Below are positions 2,668 to 28,368 of a stretch of DNA of 64,000 nt, piece by piece (within the stretch, counting starts at the first letter, position 1; each line of letters starts with the position of its first letter). The DNA is from a phage, in sequence record PX969468.1. The stretch is one strand, 5' to 3'. Both the position numbers and the translations under genes were made by a program. A model generated the notes under the pieces. The model was not told where the DNA came from, made no database searches, and saw nothing but the letters and a program-made list of their open reading frames with translations.

Positions 2668-2696
2668 TTGACTATTGTTACAAAATTTGGTAAAAT
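2668..2696 (+). promoter_or_regulatory. sigma70-like promoter
   Basis: TTGACT, 17-nt spacer, TAAAAT; upstream of GGAGG RBS and GTG start at 2730. Confidence 0.6.
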
Positions 2697-2729
2697 ACCT
2701 TGTAGAGATTTTCATACCGGAGGAGTGAC

Positions 2730-4220: not shown

Positions 4221-4231
4221 GGCGGTGAGAT

Positions 4232-6990: not shown

Positions 6991-7002
6991 TCAGGAGATA
7001 AA

Positions 7003-8043: not shown

Positions 8044-8057
8044 ATCGGAGGACTAGC

Positions 8058-8642: not shown

Positions 8643-8653
8643 GAGGAGGTGTT

Positions 8654-8968
8654 GTGGAGTTGGATTTGGCGGCATTGTACGGTATCTGCATGGGTACCGT
8701 TGTCCCGATCTGTGTATGGGCTTTCAACCAGTGGCACACCAAATGGAAAGGCATTTCCAAGAGGTTGGATGAACTGGAGAAAGACCTCATCTTAGTGAAA
8801 AACAGTATGGTTACAAAAGATAAACTTGATTCCGTTATCGAGACCCGGTTAAGCAAGCTAGAGGCCGATATTAACGACCTTAAGCAGGATGTCAGGACAG
8901 ATGTCTCCGGCATCCGAGCTGATGTACAAAAGATTTTGCACATGCTTGTAGAGCATAGTAAAAGGTAA
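8654..8968 (+). CDS. Small protein with hydrophobic N-terminus and coiled-coil C-terminus
   Basis: 104-aa ORF, GTG start 4 nt after AAGAGGAGG; start uncertain. Confidence 0.45.
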   Translation: MELDLAALYGICMGTVVPICVWAFNQWHTKWKGISKRLDELEKDLILVKNSMVTKDKLDSVIETRLSKLEADINDLKQDVRTDVSGIRADVQKILHMLVEHSKR

Positions 8969-8998
8969 ACAAAGGTCAGGACGGAAAGGACTCCGTTC

Positions 8999-9027
8999 TT
9001 GCATTTTGTTTCCTAAAGTGTTAAAAT
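8999..9027 (+). promoter_or_regulatory. sigma70-like promoter between the two fibre cassettes
   Basis: TTGCAT, 17-nt spacer, TAAAAT; upstream of AGGAGA RBS and ATG 9058. Confidence 0.55.
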
Positions 9028-9057
9028 AGTCCTAAGGAATTTTCTCAGGAGAACGTG

Positions 9058-10101: not shown

Positions 10102-10112
10102 AAAGAGGGTAA

Positions 10113-10379
10113 ATGAAATTAACTCAGTTTTTATGGGGGTTGGTTGCAGCATCTGATGACCCTACGAAAGTGTCCCAATCTAAGCTATGGTCAAACATAG
10201 GCATGGCAGTGATGACTGGGGTGTTTATTCATATGGGGTACAATGATACGCTTCCTGAATGGTATGCGTGGATATATGCACCTTCAGTAGCCTGCCCCCA
10301 GCTTATTAGCAAATTCATCTCGCTCCGGTGGGGTTGCCAGCACCCTGACCACGTTAAAAACGAAGAGCAAAAAGCTTAA
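10113..10379 (+). CDS. Hypothetical protein (88 aa) downstream of second fibre
   Basis: ORF with hydrophobic stretch; position equivalent to a fibre accessory gene but no Tfa motif. Confidence 0.45.
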   Translation: MKLTQFLWGLVAASDDPTKVSQSKLWSNIGMAVMTGVFIHMGYNDTLPEWYAWIYAPSVACPQLISKFISLRWGCQHPDHVKNEEQKA

Positions 10380-10388
10380 GGAGAAATC

Positions 10389-12134: not shown

Positions 12135-12142
12135 TATATCTG

Positions 12143-12170
12143 ACCGCTCCTGACGGGGCGGTTTTCTTAT
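12143..12170 (+). terminator. Intrinsic terminator
   Basis: ACCGCTCC-TGAC-GGGGCGGT hairpin followed by TTTCTTAT. Confidence 0.65.
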
Positions 12171-12182
12171 CTGGAGAACACA

Positions 12183-15100
12183 ATGCTTCCAATCCCTTTG
12201 CTAAAACTTGGTCGTCATTTCCTCGATAAGAGGGGTGGAGTTAAGGAACTTGCTGTTCTGTCATACCCAATAGACAACAGTGACGGTACAAGCACTACAG
12301 TGCCATATGTAAATAGCTTAGCCATACTTTTTGACGACGGTCAACTCAATATTACAGGTTACAACAGGTTCGGGGAGTGCAGGACTGGAGATCTTGACAC
12401 GATAAACTACCCAAATGAGGCTGCCTGGAACGTTGATCATGTGTGGAGAGCAGACCGTGCGTTTGTGATCCGAACTTTTGATAATCAGTTTTTCTACATC
12501 GGCTGCACTGCAGGGCTTATTGGATCTGATGCTGCAGGTGGTAATGATGTTTGTGTAAGGGAGTGGACACCTCTTCCTGAACAGATTGTTAAAGGGTTGC
12601 ACCTTGACACCCACCCGGAGCGCCTTGTTGAGGTGATGGGTGGTATTAACAACACTGTCTGGGTTATTGCAGAGGCAGAAGGCACAGGCATACTGAATCT
12701 GTATGGGTCTGGTAACAACACCTACGGATCTTTGCATGTAGATAAAAATCAGCATGCAACCCCTGTAAAGATCGGTGAGACATCGGAAAATCCTGAAACA
12801 GGCCCTTGGAAAAACCCAAGCATTAACTGCGAGGTGCATGACAACTCTGTTATTTTCGGTGGTCCTAGAGGTTTCTGGATTGCTGGATACGACTTTCTGA
12901 GAAATAACAGTAGAAACGACCTTGTTTGGCCTCCTGTGCAGATTACTCGTAACGATTTGAGAGGCATTCCTGCAGATGAGGAGTGGAAAGGGTTTATGTG
13001 TGGTCCTAACGGGGCAATAATTGCCACACAGAGGATGCACAAACCTAATGACCAGCAGCTTGTTAACGTATTCTACGGGCAAGACGTCTGGGGAGATGAC
13101 ACATGGCGTTCCTTAAATATCACCTACACCCATGAGGTGATAATGGCTCGTGGATACGGCACAAGTGGCATTTTCTTCAATAATGGCACTAAGCAGTATC
13201 GTGGGTTCTCTCGCAACTTGTGTAATGATATTGGTGCACAATCTGCAAACAATAGCCCTAGGGCCAATTTTATCCACTATCAAGCTCTTGCTACAGCTAA
13301 ATATGTTGAGCAACGCCTGCCAGTTAGCTGGACAGAGAGTGTTTATTTCCAAGGCATCCACAGAGAAGGTTTCTTAGGGACCTTTACTGTTGTTAATGGT
13401 AAACTTTGGTGGTCAGGCATCCCGAGGGGAAGTTTTGCAGGATCTAACAACCTGTTTGGCGGCAGACTTAATAGTCAGGGGTTCACAGAGGTTCCTGAGA
13501 ATTGGTATAAAAATGTCCCAGTAGACAGTTGGGGTGTTGATGATATTTTCGATGTTAACGGTGTTAGCAGCGTTAGCAATATCTACATTGGTGACACGGT
13601 CAAGATGAAACTGAAGCCTCAGCCAGAGGGGGCTACGTTCATTATTGACAAAATTGAACTGGTAAATGCTGCAGGCACGGTTGTTACAGATGCAAATTAC
13701 CAATTCTCCACCAACTGGAACCACGGTGGGGCCAACGAAGTTGTTGTTACCCAATATAACAGAAATGTTAACAGACGTGGACTGTACTCTGTAAAAATAA
13801 CCTATCATGACAAACATGGCACAGGCAGAACCCACACAACAAGGACTTTGAACTGGAACACTATCGTCCCAGCGTACCCGTCTGATGGTAAATGGCATAC
13901 TGTCGGTAGAAACAAACAGTTCCATGTCAACGATACTGTATACTTTGGGTTGAATGCCGCCCAGCCTGCAGTAGAAGGGGATACATCGTATATGGTCAGA
14001 CTCCATAGAATGGATGCTGGATCAGTAACTTATGATGTTACTCAAGAGATTTATAATCAGCGACGAAATACCTATGATAACTTGGTGCAGACACAGGCCT
14101 TATGGGAGTTCAACCCAAACGGCAGAGGTGGTAAAATGTTGCAGGTCAATGAACAAAACTGGACATCGTTGACTGTTCACGAACACCAAAACCCTTGGCC
14201 TGATCCTGGAAAACCTAACTCTGGTGCTCGTACACTGAAAATTGTCAGCCATGATGTAGGGTATTTCGGAATACGCTGGGAAGCTACAGTAAGATATGCT
14301 GATGGGACAACAAACAACATAGGGATCACTCTTGGTGGCACTAGTGAGGATAACTCACTGAAAATTGCCTACACCCCTAGAGGCATCTCTATTGACAATA
14401 TGGATGTTGTTCGCAACGGTTACGGCGATGTGAATGTCAAAGTTACTCTTGGCGAACATCTTGGTGGGGAAAGGATCATCATGTATGCCTTTGATCATGA
14501 CCCTCGCACCAATGGAACCTATGCAGACCAAGCATGGAGTTACCTGATAAGCGCACCTGAGCCAAATACTAAAGAATTCTACTATGGTATGAAGCGAGAT
14601 GTGTGCAAGAAAACAGGAACACATGACTGGATTGCTATCTGCGTTAAAGATGAGCGCACAGCTTGGGATGAGCCTGTTAACAGATGGTTCATAGGTATTC
14701 CTACCAGAAGTGATAAGTATGTCGCAGAGTATATTGTATGCATGGGCGGTACCAACCTGAACATGTGTTGGAACGAAGATGTAAACAAATACTCTGATTA
14801 TGACTATATGAGGGATTACTCTTGCAATCTGTGGTTTAACCAAACTACAGGTTACCCTCCGCGTCAGGCAAGGGTAAATCCTGCAATCTTTACAGATACT
14901 CAGGTTTTCTTGACAAAACAGGCCAACGAGGTTCAGACCTTCAAGAATAAATACGATCCTAACAAGTGGTTCTACAACTGTTACGGCGCATTTTTCTGGG
15001 GCCCTGGTGAGTTACCTGGTGGAGGATCTTGCTTGAATGAGGCAACTTACGCCAGTGACTACATCATGGGGCAGGTCAAGAAGTATAAGATAATTCCCGG

Positions 15101-17810
15101 TCCTGAAACTCTGGGTAATGCCGTTGACCCTTATATCATCATGACTGCACTGAGATCCAACATGGACGGGACATCCATGTCTATGCAAATTCCGGTAACA
15201 AACGGGTACAAACGTGTTGTGATGATCATTAAGTGCGACTTAATAGGTAAACAAGTTCTTGCAGAAAACGGGACATCCACACATCCTTTTGAGGTTGCTC
15301 TGCACTATCAGTTTGCTGACTCACCTTTTGCAGGCGATAAGAGAATATCTGATACAGATGCACAGCGTTGTAAGAAAGTATTGTTGGGTGCAGGTTGGTG
15401 GTGGTATGAGTTTGATTTAACAGACAAATTCACCGACACGTCTAAAGTTGTAACAGGACTTCGTCTAGACCTTGGTGAGAACATGCACAAAGCTGTTTGT
15501 GATGGCACCTATGGTGACCCTACAATATACCTAAAATATATTTCTTTTGAGCATCCGGAAGATGTTGTCTACGGTCCAAAACTGAGATTGTTTGGCAGTT
15601 GGATTGCAAAAGATAGGGTAGGGATGGGTAAGAAGGTGAGAGGGTTCTTGGTTGATGCAGGAACAGAAGACATGCTGGTTAATGCAGTATGGCCTGAATT
15701 ACCCGGGACTCAGTGGAACAACTCAGCCAAATCTATAAACTGGTTTAACATTCATAGAGCCATGTGGACCACCAACTGCTACTTGTGGAGAGAGCTTAAC
15801 GATCAGGCCTTTGGCTTCAGCGATGGTAGAAGGATGGCGATCATTTGCTGGACAACACTGCAAAGATGTTATGACCATGACTACGAGATTGGGGGCAGGG
15901 CATGGAAAAATATCAGGGACAGAATCATAACCAATTTTGCAGACGACAACGGTGGTGGAGCACATAACTTTGGCACAAGCCGACTCATCCATTTGAACGG
16001 ATCCTCAGCCTACAAGAAAGAAGGTTACTCTGGGTCTATGATCGAGTGGGGTCTGGTGAAAGATGCTCGCGTATTGATGGGCCAGCAACTTGCTGCCGCA
16101 ATAGGTCCCAGCGCAGTGCAGTCGGTTAAACCAGCGTGGTTCGATATTCCAATATGGTCATCTGGAACACCAGGAACTGCTGCAATCAATCCTACTACCG
16201 GGGATCTGGAAATCTCTTGGGAGGACTTGAAGCAGGTTGGGGGCTGGGATAAGACAGGGTACCAGGTGCAATGGTGGAGGTCTGACGGATCGTTAGCTGC
16301 TGATGAGTTTGTTAAGGACAACTTCTACACCATGCCCTCTGCAAAAGCACAACAACTGTTCGGTCAGTCTACCCCGTCAACGATCACCATGTCCATGTGC
16401 TGTAAAGACAACAGGACTGGAGCTTTGGGCCCAAGGGTTGCTAAAGTTTTCTCAGGTATCAAATGGAATCTTCCTGTTCAAAGTGTTGCATGGAAGCAAA
16501 TAGGCGATAACAAGCTGCTAGTTACCCCAGCTTGTCAGTTCAACGCAACTCTTAACGTTGATCCTGCTGTTGCGGCAAACTCAGCTAAAGCTTCTGACTT
16601 CTCTGTGTCTAACACTGCCATGGCAGATGTGAGGAAGATTGACACGCTGAACGCCAGAATTACCTGTAAAAACACTTATGGCACATTTCAGATCATCAAC
16701 AACTTCACAGACGCGGATTCTAAGGTAGTGAGGACAGCAAGCCAGACTCTGAGTTTAGGAACTCTGGCCTATGCGGCCCTGATCACTGAACAGTCAGCAA
16801 CACTCCAAGGGGGTGGTGTAGGCAAGTCCATTACAACACCTGTGTGGAAGCCAAATGAGTGGGTTGTGTTTGATTTGACCGTGGACTTCTCCAGCGATAA
16901 TAACTGGACATGGGTAAGGAATTGCTTGTCACAACTGATGGGTGGTCCAAGCTCCGTTAGTGATAGCCACTACTCCACTGACCCGAGTGTGTTTCAGGTG
17001 GGTAAAACTCACCCGGAGACTGGAGCAACGTTGCCTGACAGGAAGTATGCTTTGGTTTGCATCTCTTACGGGAAGGCAGATGTCACCTTCTCAGGGACAC
17101 ACACTTATAACGGAACCTACAACTTCTCAAGGAAGTATAGTCTCAAAGCAGGGAACATTATAGACGAGGTTGGTGTGCTGTATAATCCTGGCAACGGCAT
17201 AGGGATTGTGGGCGGTAAACTGCAGATGCAGGAACCTTCTATTACCCCTTCCAACGTATCCGGGATTAGAAAGACTTGGGAAAGTAGTAATACCAACATT
17301 GCAACAGTGGATGCCACCACAGGGCTGGTAACATTTAAAGCTACTGGGAATGTCACCATAAAGTTTGTAGTTACAGATGATGCAGGCCGCAAAACGTCTT
17401 CAACATCGTTTACTGTCAGACAGATGGCACCTCAGTGGTTTATTTGGGAAGGAAATCCTCTTGACGGGGCTTACCCTAGACCTGCAGGAACGTCCAATAT
17501 GAGGGTCTTTACCGGTCCGGTCATGAACAATCCGACCACAACCACCAACCCTACATTTTTTGGTGCTTACATACCTGAAATTATTGGCCTACCAAGGAAC
17601 CAGATACAACTGCTTTTCGGAGCAGGTGTTGATGGTCTAGCCACTTTTGGGTACAGTGACAACATTGATGCAGCCAGAAGCTCGGGTTGGATTGGATTTA
17701 AGTTTCAGTGGAACCCTGGTGGTAGAACATTAGGTGTTGCAAGCATAGGTGTTATGCTACCTGGTGACCAGCAATACCATCTCGAAGCTTATACAAACTT
17801 CCCTAGTTAA
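12183..17810 (+). CDS. Large tail-associated protein (1875 aa) with C-terminal Ig-like (Big_2-type) domain
   Basis: Single long ORF; Big_2-like segment (ITPSNVSGIRKTWESSNTNIATVDATTGLVTFKATGNVTIKFVVTDDAGRKTSSTSFTV); Gly/Asn-rich repeats at N-terminus. Confidence 0.7.
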   Translation: MLPIPLLKLGRHFLDKRGGVKELAVLSYPIDNSDGTSTTVPYVNSLAILFDDGQLNITGYNRFGECRTGDLDTINYPNEAAWNVDHVWRADRAFVIRTFDNQFFYIGCTAGLIGSDAAGGNDVCVREWTPLPEQIVKGLHLDTHPERLVEVMGGINNTVWVIAEAEGTGILNLYGSGNNTYGSLHVDKNQHATPVKIGETSENPETGPWKNPSINCEVHDNSVIFGGPRGFWIAGYDFLRNNSRNDLVWPPVQITRNDLRGIPADEEWKGFMCGPNGAIIATQRMHKPNDQQLVNVFYGQDVWGDDTWRSLNITYTHEVIMARGYGTSGIFFNNGTKQYRGFSRNLCNDIGAQSANNSPRANFIHYQALATAKYVEQRLPVSWTESVYFQGIHREGFLGTFTVVNGKLWWSGIPRGSFAGSNNLFGGRLNSQGFTEVPENWYKNVPVDSWGVDDIFDVNGVSSVSNIYIGDTVKMKLKPQPEGATFIIDKIELVNAAGTVVTDANYQFSTNWNHGGANEVVVTQYNRNVNRRGLYSVKITYHDKHGTGRTHTTRTLNWNTIVPAYPSDGKWHTVGRNKQFHVNDTVYFGLNAAQPAVEGDTSYMVRLHRMDAGSVTYDVTQEIYNQRRNTYDNLVQTQALWEFNPNGRGGKMLQVNEQNWTSLTVHEHQNPWPDPGKPNSGARTLKIVSHDVGYFGIRWEATVRYADGTTNNIGITLGGTSEDNSLKIAYTPRGISIDNMDVVRNGYGDVNVKVTLGEHLGGERIIMYAFDHDPRTNGTYADQAWSYLISAPEPNTKEFYYGMKRDVCKKTGTHDWIAICVKDERTAWDEPVNRWFIGIPTRSDKYVAEYIVCMGGTNLNMCWNEDVNKYSDYDYMRDYSCNLWFNQTTGYPPRQARVNPAIFTDTQVFLTKQANEVQTFKNKYDPNKWFYNCYGAFFWGPGELPGGGSCLNEATYASDYIMGQVKKYKIIPGPETLGNAVDPYIIMTALRSNMDGTSMSMQIPVTNGYKRVVMIIKCDLIGKQVLAENGTSTHPFEVALHYQFADSPFAGDKRISDTDAQRCKKVLLGAGWWWYEFDLTDKFTDTSKVVTGLRLDLGENMHKAVCDGTYGDPTIYLKYISFEHPEDVVYGPKLRLFGSWIAKDRVGMGKKVRGFLVDAGTEDMLVNAVWPELPGTQWNNSAKSINWFNIHRAMWTTNCYLWRELNDQAFGFSDGRRMAIICWTTLQRCYDHDYEIGGRAWKNIRDRIITNFADDNGGGAHNFGTSRLIHLNGSSAYKKEGYSGSMIEWGLVKDARVLMGQQLAAAIGPSAVQSVKPAWFDIPIWSSGTPGTAAINPTTGDLEISWEDLKQVGGWDKTGYQVQWWRSDGSLAADEFVKDNFYTMPSAKAQQLFGQSTPSTITMSMCCKDNRTGALGPRVAKVFSGIKWNLPVQSVAWKQIGDNKLLVTPACQFNATLNVDPAVAANSAKASDFSVSNTAMADVRKIDTLNARITCKNTYGTFQIINNFTDADSKVVRTASQTLSLGTLAYAALITEQSATLQGGGVGKSITTPVWKPNEWVVFDLTVDFSSDNNWTWVRNCLSQLMGGPSSVSDSHYSTDPSVFQVGKTHPETGATLPDRKYALVCISYGKADVTFSGTHTYNGTYNFSRKYSLKAGNIIDEVGVLYNPGNGIGIVGGKLQMQEPSITPSNVSGIRKTWESSNTNIATVDATTGLVTFKATGNVTIKFVVTDDAGRKTSSTSFTVRQMAPQWFIWEGNPLDGAYPRPAGTSNMRVFTGPVMNNPTTTTNPTFFGAYIPEIIGLPRNQIQLLFGAGVDGLATFGYSDNIDAARSSGWIGFKFQWNPGGRTLGVASIGVMLPGDQQYHLEAYTNFPS

Positions 17811-17820
17811 CAGGAGGCAA

Positions 17821-17853
17821 ATAAAAAGGGGGCCAGACGGCCCCTTTCTTTTT
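17821..17853. terminator. Bidirectional intrinsic terminator between convergent modules
   Basis: GGGGCC-AGAC-GGCCCC hairpin flanked by A-tract on one side and T-tract on the other. Confidence 0.75.
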
Positions 17854-17857
17854 ATAA

Positions 17858-18058
17858 TTAGTAATATTCCCAACACGACCCATCTTCAGACGGCTGGACA
17901 CGCTTACCTTCATGATCGACATAGGTGTAACCACAGCCTTCACAGATAACAGGGGCCGCATAACCTTCCTTCCACTGGTCCTCTGTGATCAGTCCTTTCA
18001 GATCTCCGCAGTCACGACCAAACAACTCTTCAGAACAATCTTTGCAAAAATCAGCCAT
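17858..18058 (-). CDS. Zinc-ribbon protein (66 aa)
   Basis: CxxC..C..C and CEGCG Cys pairs. Confidence 0.5.
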   Translation of the reverse strand: MADFCKDCSEELFGRDCGDLKGLITEDQWKEGYAAPVICEGCGYTYVDHEGKRVQPSEDGSCWEYY

Positions 18059-18061
18059 TTC

Positions 18062-18508
18062 TCAGTCCTCGCATTTAACAAATTTTTCTACAGATCCACC
18101 AAGCACAGCTTGTTGTTTAATGGCACTTTCTTCATCATAGTGGGTAGATTTATGTTCCGTACCTCCAAACTTACCTGTGTGGAAGGTGTGCACCCAAATC
18201 TCTTTAGGAAGGGATTTATTCTCTTCCTCCACCAACTCCCACATACCCCACAAGTGATCTGTGATATCTCTGATGAAATATCCCTCACCGAGGTTTGTAT
18301 TCACACTATAAGCTGATTCGTGATCTCCGCAAATATAACGGAAGGCAGTGTACTCTTTACCTGGTGTGAAGTGAGTGTCCATTAGTATAGCTGTTAAAGA
18401 ATAAGGGTCTCGAAAGCCTAAGAACTTTAGTTTAACAATTTCGACATTTACATCCGCAAGATTATCCATGACGATCTCCTCTGTTCGGTTGGTGAGATAA
18501 TCATACAT
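18062..18508 (-). CDS. Hypothetical protein (148 aa); weak phosphoesterase-like motifs
   Basis: MDTHF and ICGDHES motifs only; weak. Confidence 0.45.
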   Translation of the reverse strand: MYDYLTNRTEEIVMDNLADVNVEIVKLKFLGFRDPYSLTAILMDTHFTPGKEYTAFRYICGDHESAYSVNTNLGEGYFIRDITDHLWGMWELVEEENKSLPKEIWVHTFHTGKFGGTEHKSTHYDEESAIKQQAVLGGSVEKFVKCED

Positions 18509-18633
18509 AGATCTGGTGTTGGTGTCAAGTTTAATTTTAAGCGATTCTGGGGAGGTATTTTGTTCAGGAGGGTAATCACACAGGGTAGGGCAATTTATGA
18601 AGGCACAGGCCTCGTTTGAGGCCTTAAAATAGG

Positions 18634-19014
18634 TTATGACGCTTTGACGTAGCGCTCTGACAAAGCTGGGAAGCCAAAAGCAGTACCTATACTACCGTAT
18701 GCTACCCACCAGTGAAGTTCATCGTGACACCATTTTCCGATCAGGAAGGTGCTGGGGTAGCGGGTCAGTATTTTGGCATAAGCTTTAGGGTCTGCATCCT
18801 CTGGGATAATGATACTTGGAACATCTTTGTTATGACCACAGCAGCAGTTTAGAGTTTTCAATCCTGCCGCCCATAGACTCATGATAGGCTTAGCCATGCA
18901 CTTATCAAGGCACACACGTTTTTTGCCGTCACGGAGCTTTTTAGGCACATCAACGATAACATTTTGATGCTTGGCACCTTTCACTTTCCAATTATAGGAT
19001 TTACACTTGCACAT
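18634..19014 (-). CDS. Cys-rich hypothetical protein (126 aa)
   Basis: CKCK..., CLDKC, NCCCGHNKD clusters suggest metal binding; GGAG RBS. Confidence 0.5.
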   Translation of the reverse strand: MCKCKSYNWKVKGAKHQNVIVDVPKKLRDGKKRVCLDKCMAKPIMSLWAAGLKTLNCCCGHNKDVPSIIIPEDADPKAYAKILTRYPSTFLIGKWCHDELHWWVAYGSIGTAFGFPALSERYVKAS

Positions 19015-19039
19015 TTAATCAGTCTCCATCTAGAAAGCA

Positions 19040-19215
19040 ATACTTTACTTAAAATCTTTGTCACCTATTACGATTGCACGAATCCACTCATTGTGATGTT
19101 CAATGGCGGTAAGATGTAACATAATGCAGTGATTGTCATTACCAAACACGGTGCGGTAAGCTTTAGCAGCACCATGATATAACTTCCACATCAGGTAATG
19201 ATATCTTCGCCTCAT
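19040..19215 (-). CDS. Possible small protein (58 aa), below ORF-track cutoff
   Basis: ATG overlaps stop of upstream gene (ATGA); His/Tyr-rich; low confidence. Confidence 0.3.
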
Positions 19216-19691
19216 GGCTCTTTCTCCGGTTCAGGATCTGGGTAATCTTCAATAATAAAGGGCCATCCGTTCCGCTTAGCCTCAGACTTGTACTCAATCT
19301 CCTTCATTGCAAACTCTAACTGATTTTTAGCCGGAATACATGCCGGAGAATCATCCACCCAGATGTCAGGGTAGATATCGAACTGCGCCAGGTAGGCTGC
19401 CTTCTGCACACCGCCTGTATAGAACACACCTACGTCCAACTCTTTGCGCCAATACTCAATGTCCACGTTGTCTTGAGTGATGAATCGGAAAGTCACAAGG
19501 TATACTGTCCACCCTTCCTTTTTCAAGTCCCTAATCAGACGGGAGAAGATGAAAGGACTCGCATTAAATGTTCCATCAAAGTCAATGGCAATGATGTGTG
19601 TGCCGTGGCGAGTCTCGTATGGATTGCTTGTGGTAAGATTACTGTAGTTAAAAGGAACTTCTTCCCCGCAGTAGCTGTAGTCCATATTCAC
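19212..19691 (-). CDS. HAD-superfamily phosphatase (nucleotidase-like)
   Basis: Motif I IIAIDFDGT and motif IV DIWVDD. Confidence 0.6.
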   Translation of the reverse strand: MNMDYSYCGEEVPFNYSNLTTSNPYETRHGTHIIAIDFDGTFNASPFIFSRLIRDLKKEGWTVYLVTFRFITQDNVDIEYWRKELDVGVFYTGGVQKAAYLAQFDIYPDIWVDDSPACIPAKNQLEFAMKEIEYKSEAKRNGWPFIIEDYPDPEPEKEP

Positions 19692-19963
19692 ACCTTCTCG
19701 TTGATAAATTTACGGGCGGTTTGGTGAGTTGTTTCTGCTGTCTTCAGAATGATATTAATTTTATTGTCAAGATCATTCATCTCTGCAGTTAATTCAGGAA
19801 TCTCTCCAGCATGCATAGTGAAATCATACATAGACATGCCCAGAATCTCATTGATGCGACGGTTGCATTCTGCAGCACGCTGGTTCATTTTCCAAGCTAA
19901 TACCAAAGCCTCCTGCGTAGCCTCTAGTGCAAAGTCTAATACGTCGGCCTCTTCTTTCGTCAT
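19688..19963 (-). CDS. Hypothetical protein (91 aa)
   Basis: ORF in operon-like array on - strand, overlapping stop/start with neighbours. Confidence 0.45.
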   Translation of the reverse strand: MTKEEADVLDFALEATQEALVLAWKMNQRAAECNRRINEILGMSMYDFTMHAGEIPELTAEMNDLDNKINIILKTAETTHQTARKFINEKV

Positions 19964-20018
19964 CTCAGTCTCTCCTGTTGTATTGTTGGTAGGTGCATGA
20001 ACACCTTATATCTCACTT

Positions 20019-20585
20019 TTATTCAAACTGCAATAGCAAGTCCACCACCGCACTAGGCCTGTCAACAAATTCCCCAGGTCCACATGCCCATAGAGGGTAT
20101 CCATCAACATACCGCCATATCCAACCTGCAGTGTGAAGCTCAAGCAGGGCAGTGCCGTCCTTACTGTCAACCACCCTTTCCCACAGTGTTGGGCAGCGAA
20201 GCTTGAGAATCGGATCACCCCCCTTATACCCGTCCATGTAGATGCCCATTGCAAAGTTCAGCATCATCTTTTTGTGCACTGATCTCTTACTGAGAGTGCT
20301 CATCACTTCCTCTTTGTGAATGTTTGTAAGCTTCTCTTTGGCTACCCGCAGATCGTTGCAACCATTGTTCAGCAGATCTTCCAGACACTTGATCCGAAGG
20401 TCGTGAATGTCTTTGTCGTGTACCGTTGGCACAGGGTCGTAGCGGTATAGCACTGTTGATACAAGGTTGCTCGGGTGTGGGTCTGACAGCAACCCATAAC
20501 CCCAATACTCTTCTGTATCTGAAAGGACAATACACCCAATGTCTCTGTCAAGCTTTCCTGTGTTGTAAGCCACATTGACCGCCAT
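20019..20585 (-). CDS. Hypothetical protein (188 aa)
   Basis: ORF, no recognised motif. Confidence 0.5.
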   Translation of the reverse strand: MAVNVAYNTGKLDRDIGCIVLSDTEEYWGYGLLSDPHPSNLVSTVLYRYDPVPTVHDKDIHDLRIKCLEDLLNNGCNDLRVAKEKLTNIHKEEVMSTLSKRSVHKKMMLNFAMGIYMDGYKGGDPILKLRCPTLWERVVDSKDGTALLELHTAGWIWRYVDGYPLWACGPGEFVDRPSAVVDLLLQFE

Positions 20586-20587
20586 GA

Positions 20588-20833
20588 CTATAGCTCCACT
20601 AACAAAGTGCTTTCAAAGTGCCGTTCATGCAGACCGTTGTAAGGGACCACTTCTACAACGCCATCACGGACATATGGGGCCATCATAGTAGTATAATCTC
20701 CAAACGGGTTGGTATTGTCACTAACCACAACCACCTTCTGCCCTTCCTTGGCAGAGTGCCAGATAGACCTGCACTTCATCAGGTGTTCGAGAGTTCCTGG
20801 TAAAATTTTGTTACGTTCTTTACGGGTCTTCAT
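20588..20833 (-). CDS. Hypothetical protein (81 aa)
   Basis: ORF, tightly packed with neighbours. Confidence 0.45.
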   Translation of the reverse strand: MKTRKERNKILPGTLEHLMKCRSIWHSAKEGQKVVVVSDNTNPFGDYTTMMAPYVRDGVVEVVPYNGLHERHFESTLLVEL

Positions 20834-21279
20834 AACAGGTATAGCTCCTTATGAAAGTAGTCTTTTAATTTCTCACTGAGAAACTTCTTGATACCTTCCT
20901 CTAAAGTGTTTTCGATGTAGTCCAGCTTAACTGCTTCGATGGACATATCATAGATCGCCAGCTCTAAGCTGTCAAGTCCCATCATAGCATGAACCATAAG
21001 ATTTTCATCTTCAGATACATTCAGGGGACTTCCTATAACATCTGTAGGGAGGATAGTTTCCCAATTATTCTGGGGGGTAGTTCTCCCGCCATCCACTTTA
21101 CGGCGCAGTTCGAAGGTGTTCTTAGTGTAGAACACTTCATAAGAAACGATACGACTATCGCTCTCATAATAAACGAAGTTCAGGTAGGAGCCTAGCCGCA
21201 GTCGGCAAACTTCTACCCCAAACCATTGTTTCTTATAAGAATTCAGGCTAATGCTGTCGCATTCACGTTTGCTCAACAC
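20830..21279 (-). CDS. Hypothetical protein (149 aa)
   Basis: ORF overlapping neighbour by 4 nt. Confidence 0.5.
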   Translation of the reverse strand: MLSKRECDSISLNSYKKQWFGVEVCRLRLGSYLNFVYYESDSRIVSYEVFYTKNTFELRRKVDGGRTTPQNNWETILPTDVIGSPLNVSEDENLMVHAMMGLDSLELAIYDMSIEAVKLDYIENTLEEGIKKFLSEKLKDYFHKELYLL

Positions 21280-21294
21280 GGCTCTCTCCTTTTG

Positions 21295-21528
21295 TTAATC
21301 TTCGTAAATCAGGATTTCTGCTTTAGGTTTTCGTGCTTTCAGGTCCAGCTCTATCCAGTGCACCATAGCTGTTTCAAGAAAAACAGCTTGGATGCATCCG
21401 TCCTCAGCGTGCCCCACCAACATAACAAGATCTTCACCTTCGTCATCTGCATCACGAACATACAGAATCTCTCCAGATTCAAAGTCTTTCACAACCTGAT
21501 TGCTGGATAATTTACGAATTTTTGCCAT
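21295..21528 (-). CDS. Hypothetical protein (77 aa)
   Basis: ORF. Confidence 0.45.
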   Translation of the reverse strand: MAKIRKLSSNQVVKDFESGEILYVRDADDEGEDLVMLVGHAEDGCIQAVFLETAMVHWIELDLKARKPKAEILIYED

Positions 21529-21529
21529 A

Positions 21530-21793
21530 TCAGAAACCCTCTAAAAAGCTCTTGTAGAAAATAATTTCAGTGTCCACACCTGTCACGATCTTATCGTTTC
21601 GGATCTCATCTGTGAGGTAGGTGTCAAAACGCAGAACCTGTGTGGTGTTGTCACACATCCACTCAGCTGTGACCATTGCGAAAATCTTAGCATCTTCATT
21701 ATCTGGTGTGAATGTTACCACCTCACCGCACTTAAACTTTTCGATAGGTTGAGTGTTGGCTTTCGGTTCTGCGATAGTGATTTTTGTGGTCAT
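21530..21793 (-). CDS. Hypothetical protein (87 aa)
   Basis: ORF. Confidence 0.45.
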   Translation of the reverse strand: MTTKITIAEPKANTQPIEKFKCGEVVTFTPDNEDAKIFAMVTAEWMCDNTTQVLRFDTYLTDEIRNDKIVTGVDTEIIFYKSFLEGF

Positions 21794-22059
21794 TACTCTT
21801 CCTCCATAGTTTCACCAAATACTTCGATACGAGCATCGAGCTCGGTTGCTTTCAGCTCCCCAACAAAATCTTTTAGTTCTTTCTCGTCCAGATCGTAAGC
21901 CCACACACAAGAAGAACATGCAGATTTCACAATCAGCAGCGTAGATATACGGCCTGACTCCGTGATCATGCTCACAATGGTTCCTACAGGGAACGTGTTG
22001 ATAGCTTTTTTAACTGGGCGTTCAGCTTTGATTACTACCTCTGTTGCCATAAATAACAT
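21793..22059 (-). CDS. Hypothetical protein (88 aa)
   Basis: ORF. Confidence 0.45.
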   Translation of the reverse strand: MLFMATEVVIKAERPVKKAINTFPVGTIVSMITESGRISTLLIVKSACSSCVWAYDLDEKELKDFVGELKATELDARIEVFGETMEEE

Positions 22060-22065
22060 CCTCTC

Positions 22066-23559
22066 TTACTTAGCGTACTCGATTAATTCCACAGTTTTCC
22101 CAAAGCTCGGAATATAATTTTTATTATACCCTTCGGTGAGAACCCATAGAGTATCGTACTTTTTCCACTTGTTGTCAACAGCCTTTTGTTCAAAGTTATG
22201 CTCAAAGTATAGGTCGGTCAGGACGATGACATCTTTTGCATTCGGTATGTTAGCATCCAGATACTCGAACACGCAAGCAGCTGTTGTGCCCCATGTTGAG
22301 TGGACCTCATAGTTGATCATCTCGTCTATGTTGCCGCGAGTGTATACTTTAACCTCTCCAACCTCAGTTGACCAACAGAACATTGTAACCTTAAACTCTT
22401 TATACAGATTGCACAATCCTGTGATTTCATTGAACATTTTCTTTAAAGTTCTTTGAGAGATCGAGCCAGAAACGTCCAAAGCCACCACAATATCTATAGT
22501 GTTTTCCGGATTACGACCAGGAACAATAACGTGTTGGTTCTTGTTTATAGCTCCGACTTTTCGCATTGTGCTGGTCAAAGACCCAGATCGGCGACCAGGT
22601 TTTCTGTAGGTCAGTTCGGCCTTTCTTTTAGACAACATACGCTGCTTGATGATGTCTATATAATTGATTACAGGCTTACCTCTATTCTTGACAAACTCAC
22701 GAACCGCCTCAGGGCAACGACCTCCGGAAGCTTGCATTGCTGCCTCAAGCATGTCACCAGAGTCCTGCATGGCCTGATCTTTATCAGATTGGCTGATTAC
22801 AGGTTGTGGCTGATCATACCCCATCGCCTTTCCAAGATCATCACTAGTGCCACCGTTACCACTCATGTGATCGTCGGTTTGTCGTTTATCTCCTTGAGAG
22901 TTCTCGCCTTTACCGTTCTTACTTTTACCGCTATTCTGATCTCTTTGCTTATCAAGAACCGCATAGACGTTCTCAGCAATCCATCCATGGAACCTCATGT
23001 CACAGTAGCAACTAGCTAAGAAGCCAAAAGACTTACCTTTTACAAACGTAGTGCTTTTCCCCTTCGGGAAGAAAACACAAGGGGGCTTGCTAAAGTCAAC
23101 CACAAGACCTGTGTTGATAACATGATCACAGGCAATATTGAACAGCTCCGGCTCAAAACTTTTGCCACGGACCAGATGATCACAGATAATATGCCCCACC
23201 TCATGCGATAGAAGAAATGCCACCTCTTTCACAGATTTTGGGGAATAGAAAACCTCAGCCATCTCAAACTGCTTGTCAGTCAAAGATGCTTTAAGAATGG
23301 TTTTGCGCTCATCCGCCAATCCCATAATGAACTCAGGGCTGTAATAAATGCGTTTATGGTCTGTTGCCATGGTGGAGCACCATGTGTGGTTTTCTACGAA
23401 CTGCAACCCTGACAACAGTGTGCCATAAAACGGCAGTTTTTCAAGAAGATACATACGTGCTGCCTGCAGCATTCGCAAGGCGTCATCTTTTTGTGCGGCA
23501 ATGATTTCTGAACTTCTGCTATCCATTAAAACTCCAGAAGGGGCCTTGGCCCCTGTCAT
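22066..23559 (-). CDS. vWA-domain protein with N-terminal HExxH metallopeptidase-like domain
   Basis: HEVGH motif (LLSHEVGHIICDH) and MIDAS DxSxS (VVALDVSGSIS). Confidence 0.7.
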   Translation of the reverse strand: MTGAKAPSGVLMDSRSSEIIAAQKDDALRMLQAARMYLLEKLPFYGTLLSGLQFVENHTWCSTMATDHKRIYYSPEFIMGLADERKTILKASLTDKQFEMAEVFYSPKSVKEVAFLLSHEVGHIICDHLVRGKSFEPELFNIACDHVINTGLVVDFSKPPCVFFPKGKSTTFVKGKSFGFLASCYCDMRFHGWIAENVYAVLDKQRDQNSGKSKNGKGENSQGDKRQTDDHMSGNGGTSDDLGKAMGYDQPQPVISQSDKDQAMQDSGDMLEAAMQASGGRCPEAVREFVKNRGKPVINYIDIIKQRMLSKRKAELTYRKPGRRSGSLTSTMRKVGAINKNQHVIVPGRNPENTIDIVVALDVSGSISQRTLKKMFNEITGLCNLYKEFKVTMFCWSTEVGEVKVYTRGNIDEMINYEVHSTWGTTAACVFEYLDANIPNAKDVIVLTDLYFEHNFEQKAVDNKWKKYDTLWVLTEGYNKNYIPSFGKTVELIEYAK

Positions 23560-24611
23560 TATTTAACGTGCTTGAAAATACCAGCCAACTCGGTCATTGT
23601 CATGCGGGTGGTCTTCATAAGGTCTGTCATAGCCTTCTCCATAATTGGAGATACTACCATAAAGTTACCTTTGGTGAAACCTTTATTCCAATCGGTCACT
23701 AATAGTGGTTTAAGTCCGGTCCCGAGACGCTCACCAGTTAAAGCACAACATTTTCGAATATACGTGCTCTTAAACTGACTGAATGACAGATCAACTTTCA
23801 TACCTGCATCGTAGAACGTCTGGCAATAGAAAGTGTAAGCTTTGGCAATCTCAACATCGTCAGGCAGTGCAGGAACCTCTTCTGTAAGCTCTTCTTCGGC
23901 CTCTTGAGGCTCTTTTTCCTCTTCGTGATCCTGTTGCATCATTTCTTCAATCTCTTCTGTTACAGGCTCATTTACGATGTCAGAAATGTGCTTGTTGGCT
24001 CCACGATTAGCCATGAAGTTTTTAAAATCCTGCATTGGTGACATATCTTCCTCCCATTCTTCGTCAAAGAGTGCTAGTTTATCCTCTTCCGTTCCATATT
24101 GCAAGATGAAATCTTCAAAAGTGTAATCACCTTTCAATTTCTCCATACGCTCTTCGCTCAGGTGGAGCATCATCTGCTGGACAATTTTTCGATCAGTTTT
24201 GTCTTTAATCAAGACTGCGGTCTTTTTATCTACCAGACAGTCCTTTAGAGAGTTGCATCTCAATCCCACCACACAACAATTATCAACAGCATAAGGACCT
24301 TCATCATCTATCCGCTCTAGGGAGGGGTAGAAAGGATTTCCCAGTCCGTTTTCATCTGTGTGCATGTCGAAAGGTATAAGGGTATAGTCGCACACCCCCT
24401 CTCCTAAAAGTTTTTTACCAAATAGGAGGTATTCTTCCCATGACAGGTTGAACTCTATATCTCGTTTCCGTGCATTATTTTGTTTGCGTCTGTATTTTTT
24501 GAGCAAGCGCTCTAACTCTTCTGGTGTATAATATTTTTCAAGATTCATGAGTTGTCTCTCGTGCTCTGTAAGTGAAGAAATCTTATCAATTGTCTCAACA
24601 GATGTCAACAT
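23559..24611 (-). CDS. HNH endonuclease-like protein (possibly degenerate), acidic central linker
   Basis: ARKRDIEFNLSWEEY and KVDLSFSQF repeats, IRKCCALTG..DWNKGFTKGNF resembles HNH_3 core but lacks terminal Cys pair. Confidence 0.4.
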   Translation of the reverse strand: MLTSVETIDKISSLTEHERQLMNLEKYYTPEELERLLKKYRRKQNNARKRDIEFNLSWEEYLLFGKKLLGEGVCDYTLIPFDMHTDENGLGNPFYPSLERIDDEGPYAVDNCCVVGLRCNSLKDCLVDKKTAVLIKDKTDRKIVQQMMLHLSEERMEKLKGDYTFEDFILQYGTEEDKLALFDEEWEEDMSPMQDFKNFMANRGANKHISDIVNEPVTEEIEEMMQQDHEEEKEPQEAEEELTEEVPALPDDVEIAKAYTFYCQTFYDAGMKVDLSFSQFKSTYIRKCCALTGERLGTGLKPLLVTDWNKGFTKGNFMVVSPIMEKAMTDLMKTTRMTMTELAGIFKHVK

Positions 24612-24621
24612 CAAAAACGTG

Positions 24622-24650
24622 TTGACTTTACTCTAAATCTCCGATATAGT
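24622..24650 (+). promoter_or_regulatory. sigma70-like promoter for + strand module, in divergent intergenic region
   Basis: TTGACT, 17-nt spacer, TATAGT. Confidence 0.65.
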
Positions 24651-24690
24651 GCACCCATTCGAAAGAAAACTAACATAGGAGCACTCACTC

Positions 24691-25590
24691 ATGGCAAATC
24701 TTAACAGTTTTAGTACGCGGTGGAAACAGGACATAACAACCAATCTTTCAGCTGGGGACATCCTTTCTGCAATTTACGAGGCTTTAGATGATAAAGCTAC
24801 TTCAAAAGCGGTTTGTACCAACCCACTAATTCCTATAGTGATGAAGGTGATTGAGCGTAGATTGGTATCGGGGTCTGATAAGTGGACATATTTAGATAAT
24901 GAAGGACACACCTATTCCAACGGGTATGTCGATATAAAAGTAGAATACGCGGTATCATACCGCCGGAGCGGTTCTGTGACTTTCAACTTTTCTGGAGGTT
25001 TTCGATCTCTGGCAACTTCACCTTTTGTTTCCTCAGAAGAGAAGTTTGAACTTCCGTTCCTTTGGATGATGGCTAACGCGACAGGAAAAACCCCCGTGAG
25101 CATTCGCGTAAAATACAACTACAACGGGTCCAGTAAGATCTATGCCGAGAGTATCTCAGCAAGTTTTTATTTTGTGATGGGGGATGGAATCCTCAAGCAC
25201 ATAAAGATGTGCGATATGCATGATGTTATAAATGAAGTGACTGATAAGAATGTTTTAGTGAAGGACCTCAACAATTTCTATACACCTGGGGACTATTACG
25301 TCAACCGCCCACTGTGCATCTTTAATGCCGCACACCCTTTAGGTGAATACCTGATCGTTAATAGTGACATTGCTAACAACATTTTTGAACTGGCAAGAGT
25401 ACAAAATGAGGTATTGACATCCTGCAAAAGTGGTGATAAATTTACTGATGAAGAGATGGGTGTTTTAGAAATGATGGGGTATAAATGCAGTCTTTGGGTA
25501 GATGAGGTGTTTAATGACTACATCTACGGACAGGATATTTACCCGTTAAAGAAGTATACTGATACAAGTTTAATTTATGCGGGGATTTGA
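24691..25590 (+). CDS. Hypothetical protein (299 aa), first gene of + strand module
   Basis: ORF with RBS AGGAG. Confidence 0.55.
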   Translation: MANLNSFSTRWKQDITTNLSAGDILSAIYEALDDKATSKAVCTNPLIPIVMKVIERRLVSGSDKWTYLDNEGHTYSNGYVDIKVEYAVSYRRSGSVTFNFSGGFRSLATSPFVSSEEKFELPFLWMMANATGKTPVSIRVKYNYNGSSKIYAESISASFYFVMGDGILKHIKMCDMHDVINEVTDKNVLVKDLNNFYTPGDYYVNRPLCIFNAAHPLGEYLIVNSDIANNIFELARVQNEVLTSCKSGDKFTDEEMGVLEMMGYKCSLWVDEVFNDYIYGQDIYPLKKYTDTSLIYAGI

Positions 25591-26881: not shown

Positions 26882-27184
26882 GTGGCAAGGATGCCACTTA
26901 AAAGAGTAATAAACATGTTATACCAGAAACACGAACTTTGTGCAGAAAAAGAGTTAAATTTTGACAAAGTTATCCACAGATATTGTTATGGAAAAACCGG
27001 AAGACAACTAAGAAGATGCACTCCAGCATTCTTTCACCCCAGCAGGCGGCTAAGTCCTGAAGAGGCGACAGCAGAAAGGGTTGCATACAACTGGGAAGTT
27101 GTGTACGATATTGACAGATCCGATGTGACATCTGTTTTGGAAAACTTTGAAAACACTTACACACAAGTAGAGGATTTTTACTAA
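26882..27184 (+). CDS. Hypothetical protein (about 100 aa), start uncertain
   Basis: ORF; weak RBS. Confidence 0.4.
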   Translation: MARMPLKRVINMLYQKHELCAEKELNFDKVIHRYCYGKTGRQLRRCTPAFFHPSRRLSPEEATAERVAYNWEVVYDIDRSDVTSVLENFENTYTQVEDFY

Positions 27185-28368
27185 TGTCAAGAAACGTATT
27201 TGAAAGTGGTCAAATCACTGTCCGTGAGTTGCCAGCTATCATTCAGTTTGCCCAGCGTCATAACCGATCTGTCCTGATTTTAGGACCAATGGGTGTGGGA
27301 AAGAGTCAGGTGATGAAGCAGATCGCTGATAATATGTTCGGTGAGCGAGATGACAACCTGGTTGACGTGCGGCTGTCAGATAAAGATCCTGCCGACTTAT
27401 CTGGGCTACCTATCCCTGTAGAAGCTGATGGAACTACACGTACAGTGTTTGCAATTCCAGAATTTTGGCCTGCAGATCCGAACTGGAGCGGAATTATCTT
27501 TCTGGATGAGCTTACTCATGCAGATAACTATCTGCAAAAGGTTGCAATGCAGATTATGCTCGACCACAAGTGCGGCACCTATGCATTCCCTAAAGGCTCT
27601 GTTTTTGTGGCTGCGGGTAACCGTTCTACAGATGGTGCTGTTCTTTCGGCGCTCGAAGCTCCTCTGGCTAACCGCTTTATCATTGTAGAGGTTACAAGCA
27701 ATGCAGAGGTGTTTATTGAGGACTACGCATTCCTCAACGGGGTTCACTCCTCTGTAATTGGGTATCTGAAAAGAGTTCCATCAGCTATTGATAATTATGA
27801 GGCTATGGCTGAGATTAATTGTCCATCTTTTGCCACACCACGATCTTGGGTTGCTGCATCTGACATCTTGCACGATTTTGACAGCGGTATTATTTCTGAC
27901 GCTATGGCCCGTGTTCTTCTGCAAGGTGCTATTGGTCACACTGCAGCGGTAGAGATCTGGACCTACCACACCAAGAAACGCAACTTACCGGAAATCGGTC
28001 GGATTATGGCAGGGGGTTGCAAAGAATACGTAGGTCCTAAACAGCCAGACATCTTGTGGATTCTTGGATCTGAAGGTTGTATCGCTATTCGTAATATGAT
28101 GGAAAATGCAAGTATCTCCGACGAAGATCTTGTTAGCTGTGTGGCAAACTTCCTCGATTTCCTTTGGGAAAACTTCAAGGACGAGAACCGAGATTTTGTA
28201 TTCTCAGTCTTTATGGCGATGATGAAACCTAATGCCTTAGGAAATGCCTTGCTTATCGGTAAAGGTCGTGACAAGATTGTTGCTCAGCTGATCAAAGCAT
28301 ACCCAAACCTGATGAAGATTGTAAAAGAGTTTGGTGAAGAGTTTAGCGCCATTTTGGCTAAAGCTTAA
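27184..28368 (+). CDS. MoxR-like AAA+ ATPase
   Basis: Walker A LILGPMGVGKS, Walker B IIFLDELTHA. Confidence 0.75.
   Translation: MSRNVFESGQITVRELPAIIQFAQRHNRSVLILGPMGVGKSQVMKQIADNMFGERDDNLVDVRLSDKDPADLSGLPIPVEADGTTRTVFAIPEFWPADPNWSGIIFLDELTHADNYLQKVAMQIMLDHKCGTYAFPKGSVFVAAGNRSTDGAVLSALEAPLANRFIIVEVTSNAEVFIEDYAFLNGVHSSVIGYLKRVPSAIDNYEAMAEINCPSFATPRSWVAASDILHDFDSGIISDAMARVLLQGAIGHTAAVEIWTYHTKKRNLPEIGRIMAGGCKEYVGPKQPDILWILGSEGCIAIRNMMENASISDEDLVSCVANFLDFLWENFKDENRDFVFSVFMAMMKPNALGNALLIGKGRDKIVAQLIKAYPNLMKIVKEFGEEFSAILAKA

Follow-up and report, generated by a model that had tools for sequence, protein, structure and literature searches.

The phage genome sequence PX969468.1, analyzed here as a single window of 64,000 nucleotides, carries on its minus strand a block of 14 tightly packed genes (17858–24548), designated O1 to O14 by increasing coordinate. 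We consider it fairly likely that these genes form a non-structural accessory operon, dispensable on the laboratory host and probably expressed early, whose products are a mixed set of host-takeover and counter-defense proteins and do not constitute one pathway. The identity and boundaries of the unit, the reality of its 14 genes, the dispensability of their counterparts in phage Bas54 and the domain content of O5, O13 and O14 are documented below or in the cited papers. An earlier inspection of the letters of this DNA, referred to here as the sequence-only reading, had suggested nucleotide pool manipulation or DNA modification as the role of the block; it passed over the two largest genes, which are also the most informative and encode an Srd-like protein (O14) and a peptidase–VWA protein (O13).

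Identity, Extent and Dispensability of the Module

Region 17800–24700 aligns over its full length, at 95–96% identity, with over 100 Vequintavirus genomes, PMBT16, nomine and AlexBoehm/Bas56 among them, and the source phage is itself a Vequintavirus with ~96% DNA identity to PMBT16, nomine and AlexBoehm. Gene order and orientation of the module are unchanged in AlexBoehm, nomine and ECP2309. Comparison with the record of the type phage rV5 equates the module with its ORFs 11–26, and the rV5 genome paper (Kropinski et al. 2013) proposed four transcription units, one of them "genes 11–26" (PMC3606486). The 14-gene block is hence an already published unit of rV5-like phages, known since 2013, and the statement of the sequence-only reading that its function is unknown can be kept only in part, as it overlooks that description (PMC3606486).

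The rV5 unit 11–26, bas54_0042–0056 and bas56_0041–0054 contain the same genes in the same order, at ~91–100% nucleotide identity to the module. They lie between the same tail-fiber and "fucosyltransferase" genes, and rV5 also shares the sigma70 promoter P11, terminators on both strands and an Srd-like first gene. Differences from the rV5 and Bas54 units are allelic only: O13 corresponds to two ORFs (12 and 13) in rV5, and two small genes occupy the O2 locus in Bas54, as they do in contig JZQG01000001. Gene order is also retained in a relative ~60% identical at the protein level, and the order of the core module genes in phages PVP-SE1 and Hena1.

The 14 consecutive minus-strand ORFs cover 95.4% of 17858–24548, in agreement with the gene block that the sequence-only reading had delineated, and GC skew is negative across 18–24 kb and positive elsewhere. 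All 14 ORFs are open in each of four relatives. Substitutions relative to these four are distributed over codon positions 1, 2 and 3 as 185:61:931, and 939 synonymous codon changes stand against 179 non-synonymous ones; this positional bias and synonymous excess identify the ORFs as genuine genes and not chance reading frames. The module genes are under strong purifying selection, with the weakest signal in O4. Seven ORFs fall below 100 aa (66, 56, 91, 81, 77, 87 and 88 aa), one more than previously counted. The likely true starts are ATG 24548 for O14, ATG 23526 for O13, ATG 18469 for O2 and ATG 19685 for O5; those of O14, O13 and O2 are each preceded by a Shine–Dalgarno sequence and agree with public annotations. 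For O14, the upstream TTG at 24614 is discarded because it precedes the gene's own promoter, which would lie inside the longest O14 reading.

The placement of the module between structural and replication genes, on the opposite strand, was likewise described correctly: tail-fiber genes adjoin one side, and a plus-strand unit with an ATPase, rIIA/B, a helicase and replication genes adjoins the other.

Dispensability follows from a transposon-insertion map of Bas54 obtained by HIDEN-SEQ, in which bas54_0042–0056 are all non-essential on E. coli K-12; one small gene at the Bas54 O2 locus was classed as "reduced fitness" on this host (10.1101/2025.11.20.689424). None of gp11–26 appears in the list of rV5 virion proteins. 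The only structural or lysis match in the module is an unsupported "tail protein" label on O9; the outcome named as refuting the sequence-only reading, matches of all ORFs to well-known structural or lysis proteins, was not observed.

When every module protein was scanned against Pfam, NCBIfam and PADLOC, only the two O13 domains exceeded threshold, and no module protein matches a PADLOC defense-system model. Membrane-protein character was seen in no module protein. All-against-all BLASTP of the module proteins gave no mutual similarity, including the paralogy sought among O8 and O10–O12, and an Rfam scan of 17000–25500 gave no RNA family.

The O13 Peptidase and the Divergently Encoded ATPase

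Gene O13 (22066–23526, minus strand; rV5 ORF12/13) encodes a 486-aa protein resembling phage N4 gp25. It combines a zincin-like metallopeptidase domain (DUF2201_N, PF13203; E 4.7e-28, 99 bits vs. a 23.2-bit cut-off) with a von Willebrand factor A (VWA)-like domain (DUF2201, PF09967; E 3.7e-11, 43.7 bits vs. a 26.4-bit cut-off). The peptidase motif HExxH (H108, E109, H112) is kept in a 29%-identical N4-like homolog, and so are the residues of the metal ion-dependent adhesion site, namely the DxSxS motif (D351-V-S353-G-S355), T414 and D438. The label "HNH endonuclease", attached to the protein through PHROG 1314, is wrong, given the above-threshold peptidase and VWA domains and their intact motifs.

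VWA proteins of this kind serve in other systems as cofactors of MoxR-type AAA+ ATPases. A likely partner is encoded outside the module, in the divergent unit (27184–28368, plus strand): an N4 gp24-like protein that the AlexBoehm, rV5 and Bas54 annotations call MoxR ATPase and that matches phrog_1297 ("ATPase", 9e-111). A PDB sequence search with it returned Clp ATPases, over the Walker A region only. That the protein is an AAA+ P-loop ATPase like N4 gp24 is clear; the label "MoxR" was reproduced neither by Pfam nor by the PDB search.

The two genes travel together. Homologs of O13 were found in 674 phage records and those of the ATPase in 813, with matching counts per genus (Escherichia 214/214, Pectobacterium 26/26, Cronobacter 17/17, Achromobacter 17/17), and N4-like, Rak2-like jumbo and rV5-like phages have all kept the pair. 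The gp24-like and gp25-like genes are adjacent in the N4-like phage PhAPEC7. In the present genome they are not adjacent, unlike N4 gp24/gp25; they stand 3.6 kb apart in divergent units that flank a shared promoter region, a layout kept in Erwinia phage Hena1. O13 shares both Pfam domains and their motifs with the MoxR–vWA–peptidase pairs of N4 (gp24/gp25) and of group 2.2 jumbo phages; the ATPase scored below the MoxR family thresholds.

An experimental link comes from the Bas54 screen on the clinical strain E. coli CFE311, where the MoxR ATPase bas54_0063 and bas54_0140 were required to overcome DS-28, a predicted two-gene defense system of this strain (10.1101/2025.11.20.689424). In the same data the O13 ortholog bas54_0055 is depleted with a log2 fold change (log2FC) of −2.20 (~4.6-fold; adjusted p 0.009, 85 TA sites), the ATPase gene itself having a log2FC of −7.23 (10.1101/2025.11.20.689424). 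This is the only significantly depleted module ortholog on CFE311 and was not discussed by the authors; the O9 ortholog has a similar log2FC (−2.28) that is not significant (adjusted p 0.195) (10.1101/2025.11.20.689424). A literature search for DS-28 returned nothing beyond two preprints.

Proceeding from the domains and from the conserved pairing, O13 could contribute a VWA adaptor and a protease to the AAA+ "MoxR" ATPase, the pair remodeling or cleaving a target protein. We tentatively suggest, as one possibility, that the two proteins make up an ATP-driven machine in which O13 would recognize and cleave the substrate, thereby disabling a host defense, namely DS-28 of E. coli CFE311.

A different task was proposed by Iyer and colleagues, who described the peptidase–vWA and MoxR pair in jumbo phages and assigned it a role in assembly (PMC7824862). 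Applied here, O13 and the ATPase would be a virion-assembly chaperone and processing protease and the module would serve morphogenesis, a notion with which the jumbo-phage proposal (PMC7824862), the adjacent tail-fiber cluster and the PHROG label "tail protein" of O9 agree. Nevertheless, O13, the ATPase and O9 are all dispensable for plaque formation by Bas54, gp11–26 were not reported in rV5 virions, the ATPase phenotype is defense-specific, and the module is oriented opposite to the late structural genes and does not have their late-promoter motif. In contrast to the assembly proposal, the only experimental link available here is DS-28 counter-defense, and we regard a morphogenetic function as quite unlikely.

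A side observation from the same transposon data concerns the plus-strand gene at 12183–17810, whose Bas54 ortholog is dispensable on K-12 and depleted on the clinical strain (log2FC −2.23).

The Srd-like Protein O14

The first gene of the unit, O14 (23559–24548, minus strand; rV5 ORF11), encodes a 329-aa protein built from two HNH/PacI-like domains (residues 1–164 and 228–329), which are joined by an acidic disordered linker of ~60 residues. Its product gp11 was termed an Srd homolog in the rV5 paper (PMC3606486). Residues 8–143 align with residues 4–133 of T4 Srd (NP_049634) at 24% identity (BLASTP E 1e-7), with the common core C-x-Y-[ST]...S-L-E-R-x-D...G-N. Matches to phrog_1400 ("Srd anti-sigma factor", 9.2e-11) and phrog_4592 (2.9e-14) point in the same direction, as do structural matches in BFVD, which are to Srd-annotated proteins. 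The genes for O14 and T4 Srd both stand first or early in a host-takeover region. O14 is longer than its T4 counterpart (329 vs. 248 aa) and has a second copy of the module (residues 253–299) as well as the acidic linker.

The "anti-sigma" label goes back to the original postulate that T4 Srd acts as a decoy of sigma70 and sigmaS (PMC3606486); searches with the anti-sigma family models of Pfam and NCBIfam gave no O14 match. The sole experimental finding on this family, in the account of Qi et al. (2015) given in PMC13232886, is that T4 Srd attaches to RNase E through the N-terminal half of the latter and promotes the decay of host RNA. By analogy, O14 may bind RNase E and hasten the decay of host mRNA, with its degenerate HNH-like domains acting as binding modules and the acidic linker as a flexible or mimicry segment.

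Several records annotate O14 as a nuclease of the HNH type, which could be an active homing endonuclease or an enzyme degrading host DNA. The protein does have a beta-beta-alpha-metal fold, and its two modules share the conserved core S-x-E-R-I-D...N...N...K. However, this core includes no invariant histidine in either module; conserved cysteines (C53 and C268, with the nearly invariant C92 and C242) do not make up four-cysteine zinc sites, and in both respects O14 departs from PacI and the compact HNH nucleases. Single-sequence and profile searches of the PDB gave no sequence-level match to solved HNH proteins. Moreover, the closest characterized relative, T4 Srd, works by binding RNase E, and the position of the gene is fixed in every relative, unlike that of a mobile endonuclease gene. 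An active nuclease is therefore unlikely. Some records also call O14 an "anti-termination protein" or a "type II restriction endonuclease"; no support was found for either name.

The Predicted HAD Phosphatase O5

Gene O5 (19212–19685, minus strand; rV5 ORF21) encodes a protein of 157 aa in which the sequence-only reading had recognized a HAD phosphatase, and this call is borne out by the presence of all four HAD motifs and by a modeled capless HAD fold with a Rossmann-like core. Motif I (D37-F-D39-G-T41) does not vary among 8 aligned sequences and is at least 90% conserved among 70; T67 (motif II), K97 (III) and D113-D114 (IV) are invariant across the 70 sequences, which are 22–66% identical. 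Curated models are blind to the family: O5 has no match to the HAD models of Pfam or NCBIfam, and its relatives give sub-threshold matches only (Hydrolase, 0.0083; 5-nucleotidase, 0.078; Acid_phosphat_B, 0.08). A PDB search with the single sequence returned noise only, a profile search gave a borderline match to 2obb (E 0.07), and a word-indexed homolog search found close relatives only. Judged by its motifs and predicted fold, O5 is a genuine capless HAD phosphatase, though Pfam misses it. A further "phosphoesterase-like" protein mentioned in the sequence-only reading could be matched to no ORF, and Pfam and NCBIfam gave no phosphoesterase signal besides the HAD one.

We found 348 relatives of O5, and the family is common in the replication and nucleotide neighborhoods of phages. 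The O5-type gene directly follows a gene for a MazG-like pyrophosphatase in PVP-SE1 (gp209/gp208) and Hena1 (gp126/gp125), adjoins ribonucleotide reductase in a Rhizobium phage, and lies near DNA polymerase or primase/helicase genes in phiEco32 and phiPsa267. The pairing with MazG in two sister genera suggests a two-step route from nucleoside triphosphate through nucleoside monophosphate to nucleoside; the module itself contains no MazG gene.

Known capless (C0-type) HADs include the 3′-phosphatase domain of T4 polynucleotide kinase, Pnkp (PDB 1ltq, 5uj0), and BT_0820 (2obb). The phosphomonoester that O5 would hydrolyze could sit on a nucleotide or else terminate a nucleic acid at its 3′ end, the latter being retained as an option because of structural similarity to the Pnkp phosphatase. 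For this predicted activity, gene neighborhoods plausibly favor a nucleotide substrate. Compared with T4 Pnkp, O5 has no kinase domain and is invisible to Pfam and NCBIfam models, and its MazG-like neighbor in sister genera points more to nucleotides. The label "polynucleotide kinase" (Pnkp) in record rV5_ev158 is wrong for O5, a 157-aa HAD core with no P-loop 5′-kinase.

It is tempting to extend this to the whole block, with the HAD phosphatase as the core enzyme and the Cys-rich and zinc-ribbon proteins as accessories in handling nucleotide pools or modifying phage DNA, as the sequence-only reading had hinted. Besides the predicted phosphatase itself, such a role could draw on the O5 homologs encoded beside MazG-like pyrophosphatase and ribonucleotide reductase and near DNA polymerase and primase/helicase, and on the S-adenosylmethionine (SAM) methyltransferase fusion of one O3-family member; the fusion, however, is a single case. 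Only one of the 14 genes has a nucleotide-relevant fold, and scans of Pfam, NCBIfam and PHROG detected no base-modifying enzyme, glycosyltransferase, methyl-transfer enzyme, kinase or deaminase. The nucleotide-metabolism genes of rV5 lie elsewhere in its genome (gp94, 106 and 109–117), and the module genes are all dispensable. Vequintavirinae also proved "exceptionally susceptible" to restriction-modification in the BASEL study, which argues against modified DNA (PMC8594841). The proposed role remains plausible for O5 alone; for the module as a whole we judge it highly improbable.

Promoters, Terminators and Expression Timing

The transcription signals anticipated at both ends of the block were recovered. 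A bidirectional intrinsic terminator (17826–17847) separates the plus-strand tail-fiber gene from O1; it has a GC stem with an A-run on one side and a T-run on the other, matches the terminator consensus on both strands (−17.4 and −17.9 kcal/mol; z −2.95 and −2.65), and coincides with terminators on both strands at the equivalent position in the rV5 record. At the opposite end, two sigma70-type consensus matches stand back to back within 24580–24650. The minus-strand one (24580–24608; TTGACA-17-TAAGAT with an extended −10) corresponds to rV5 P11 and would serve the module, and the plus-strand one (24622–24650; TTGACT-17-TATAGT) would serve the divergent unit. At 24604–24626, the divergent −35 hexamers make up an inverted repeat of 7–8 bp (GTCAACA...TGTTGAC), which may merely reflect two facing TTGAC boxes or could be a candidate site for a dimeric regulator.

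Inside the module, a hairpin with no U-tract lies just past the O3 stop (18607–18626, minus strand; −13.1 kcal/mol, z −3.2) and may represent a weak terminator or an RNA-stability element. It is followed, ahead of O2, by a sigma70-type consensus match in 11 of 12 positions (18528–18500, minus strand; TTGACA-17-TATGAT), and taken together the two point to at least two transcription units. The rV5 record additionally annotates a promoter, P20, ahead of ORF20. Another GC hairpin (23539–23554, minus strand) lies in the 32 nt that separate O14 from O13, immediately ahead of the O13 Shine–Dalgarno sequence; it was dropped as a terminator candidate because its folding energy (−12.8 kcal/mol) is no better than that of shuffled sequence (z −0.78).

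With one mismatch allowed, the window holds 17 copies of the rV5 late-promoter-like motif TGGTAAAATA vs. 7.3 expected; eight of them are plus-strand matches in the structural genes (1–16000). A scan of the window gave no usable minus-strand copy upstream of any module gene. From the sigma70-type promoters and this distribution of the late motif we infer that transcription of the module probably relies on unmodified host RNA polymerase and hence falls early in infection.

Weighing the Interpretation

Several points weigh against the host-takeover and counter-defense interpretation. Nine of the 14 genes come without functional evidence, and the label is generalized from two or three genes. Depletion of the O13 ortholog is modest beside that of the ATPase and was not followed up by the authors; it was, furthermore, measured in a whole clinical strain and not with cloned DS-28 (10.1101/2025.11.20.689424). 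The sheet that holds these values (Data S6 of Extended Data Table 8) is titled "resampling_K-12_vs_CFE303", whereas its command line and wig files say 311; we assign it to the CFE311 screen, since the depletions that the main text ties to CFE311 appear in it. The sequence tools used did not place the ATPase in the MoxR family, its matches to the Pfam models bpMoxR (E 0.011) and AAA_5 (E 0.0072) being sub-threshold. The Srd analogy rests on 24% identity, and the Bas54 ortholog of O14 has no phenotype on K-12 or CFE311 (log2FC −0.08) (10.1101/2025.11.20.689424). As for timing, a literature search found no Vequintavirinae transcriptome, so that early expression is deduced from the promoters, and promoter-consensus matches in the region (21) are not above the expectation from shuffled sequence (15.3 ± 4.2).

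Such points could be taken further, to the view that the module has no common function and that unrelated, near-neutral genes merely share a promoter, the O13 signal on CFE311 being noise or a polar effect. The nine genes with no detectable function, the mutual dissimilarity of the module proteins, the variability of the O2 and O8 loci between relatives, the confinement of O7 to one genus and the dispensability of every module gene would all be expected under it. Near-neutrality is nonetheless hard to reconcile with strong purifying selection on nearly every gene, with a gene order conserved at ~60% protein identity and with the layout kept across genera by the Srd-like and DUF2201 genes together with the divergent ATPase unit; the depletion of the O13 ortholog, for its part, spans 85 TA sites with an adjusted p of 0.009. 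We consider an assemblage with no common function improbable, and retain the accessory operon with mixed host-takeover and counter-defense functions as our preferred reading.

Cysteine-Rich and Other Small Proteins

The last gene of the unit, O1 (17858–18058, minus strand; rV5 ORF26), encodes an acidic 66-aa protein with a CxxC...CxxC zinc-ribbon-like pattern and matches phrog_2210, a family of unknown function (E 1e-37). The zinc ribbon of the sequence-only reading holds as far as the pattern itself is concerned (knuckles C5-x2-C8 and C39-x2-C42), and matches to zinc-ribbon models in Pfam and NCBIfam are insignificant (E 0.25–0.85). According to the rV5 record, this protein has a homolog in Felix O1, and its ortholog is dispensable in Bas54.

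O3 (18634–19014, minus strand; rV5 ORF24) is the Cys-cluster protein singled out earlier, and the conserved Cys/His cluster (LNCCCGHNKD) is indeed present in this basic, 126-aa product. An exhaustive search places it in a CxC/DxC/SCCGH family of 698 clusters at E<1e-3, with C2, C4, D37, C39, W48, T54, C58, C59, G60 and H61 invariant. The family has no Pfam model, no annotation and no PDB relative, profile search included. Homologs from a genome scan, run with a narrower alignment than the broad family one, are standalone proteins of 93–140 aa from Actinobacteria, Bacteroidales, Firmicutes, Verrucomicrobia and one archaeon; one family member is fused to a SAM methyltransferase domain. The family is rare in isolated phages outside Vequintavirus. 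Its conserved cysteines and histidine suggest that O3 probably binds metal, and O1 may do so as well.

The variable locus O2 (18062–18469, minus strand; rV5 ORF25) encodes 135 aa from an ATG with a GGAG Shine–Dalgarno sequence and appears as a composite of two PHROGs; its C-terminal 45-residue module recurs in several other PHROGs. O4 (19045–19215, minus strand), encoding a basic protein of 56 aa (phrog_12006), is the least well supported gene: it is intact in relatives, with synonymous/non-synonymous counts of 0/4 and 11/9. For O6 (19688–19963, minus strand; rV5 ORF20), the corresponding counts are 12/0, 5/0, 11/1 and 13/0. Its acidic product of 91 aa gives weak helical or coiled-coil matches in Pfam and PHROG. 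Since MazG precedes the O5 homolog in sister genera, O6 was considered as a MazG relative but is unlikely to be one, having no Pfam MazG match and being unlike MazG by eye.

O7 (20019–20585, minus strand; rV5 ORF19; phrog_12232) encodes an orphan protein of 188 aa, found in 116 phage records that are all at least 95% identical and belong to Vequintavirus only. O8 (20588–20833, minus strand; 81 aa; phrog_4868) is under purifying selection; in contig JZQG01000001, no size-matched gene is called at its position. O9 (20830–21279, minus strand; rV5 ORF17) encodes a 149-aa protein of phrog_6790 whose homologs extend to Seunavirus and Cronobacter phages; we reject the label "tail protein", as the protein is absent from the rV5 virion proteins and dispensable in Bas54. 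The acidic proteins O10 (21295–21528; 77 aa; phrog_12046), O11 (21530–21793; 87 aa; phrog_12861) and O12 (21793–22059; 88 aa; phrog_10698) are likewise encoded on the minus strand and under purifying selection.

Neighboring Gene and Related Records

Immediately beyond the promoter region, the plus-strand gene at 24691–25590 is annotated in many records as "putative alpha 1-3 fucosyltransferase". It has no Pfam match at E≤1 and belongs to a PHROG of unknown function only; the label goes back to the rV5 record, which mentions that the product weakly resembles the C-terminal end of bovine FUT9. The gene is dispensable in Bas54.

Sixteen GenBank records (MG0656xx) described as "Campylobacter phage" with the host C. 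jejuni are ~95% identical to rV5-like coliphages over the region. Their host label appears doubtful, and contamination or mislabeling is possible.

Significance

As a genome feature, the module adds little, since the unit, its promoters and terminators, the Srd-like gene and dispensability have been published for near-identical phages. The practical value lies in the correction of annotations: O13 and O14 circulate as "HNH endonuclease", "anti-sigma factor", "anti-termination protein" and "type II restriction endonuclease"; records list O5 and O3 as "hypothetical". Three leads emerge, namely a possible joint action of O13 and the ATPase against DS-28, a Pfam-invisible minimal HAD family with 348 relatives, and the CxC/DxC/SCCGH family with its 698 clusters. 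As rV5-like phages are used in biocontrol and phage therapy, accessory genes that matter on clinical hosts have some applied value. If the tentative model of O13 and the ATPase is true, the pair would represent a widespread, so far unrecognized class of energy-dependent anti-defense protease, and the module would be a counter-defense island.

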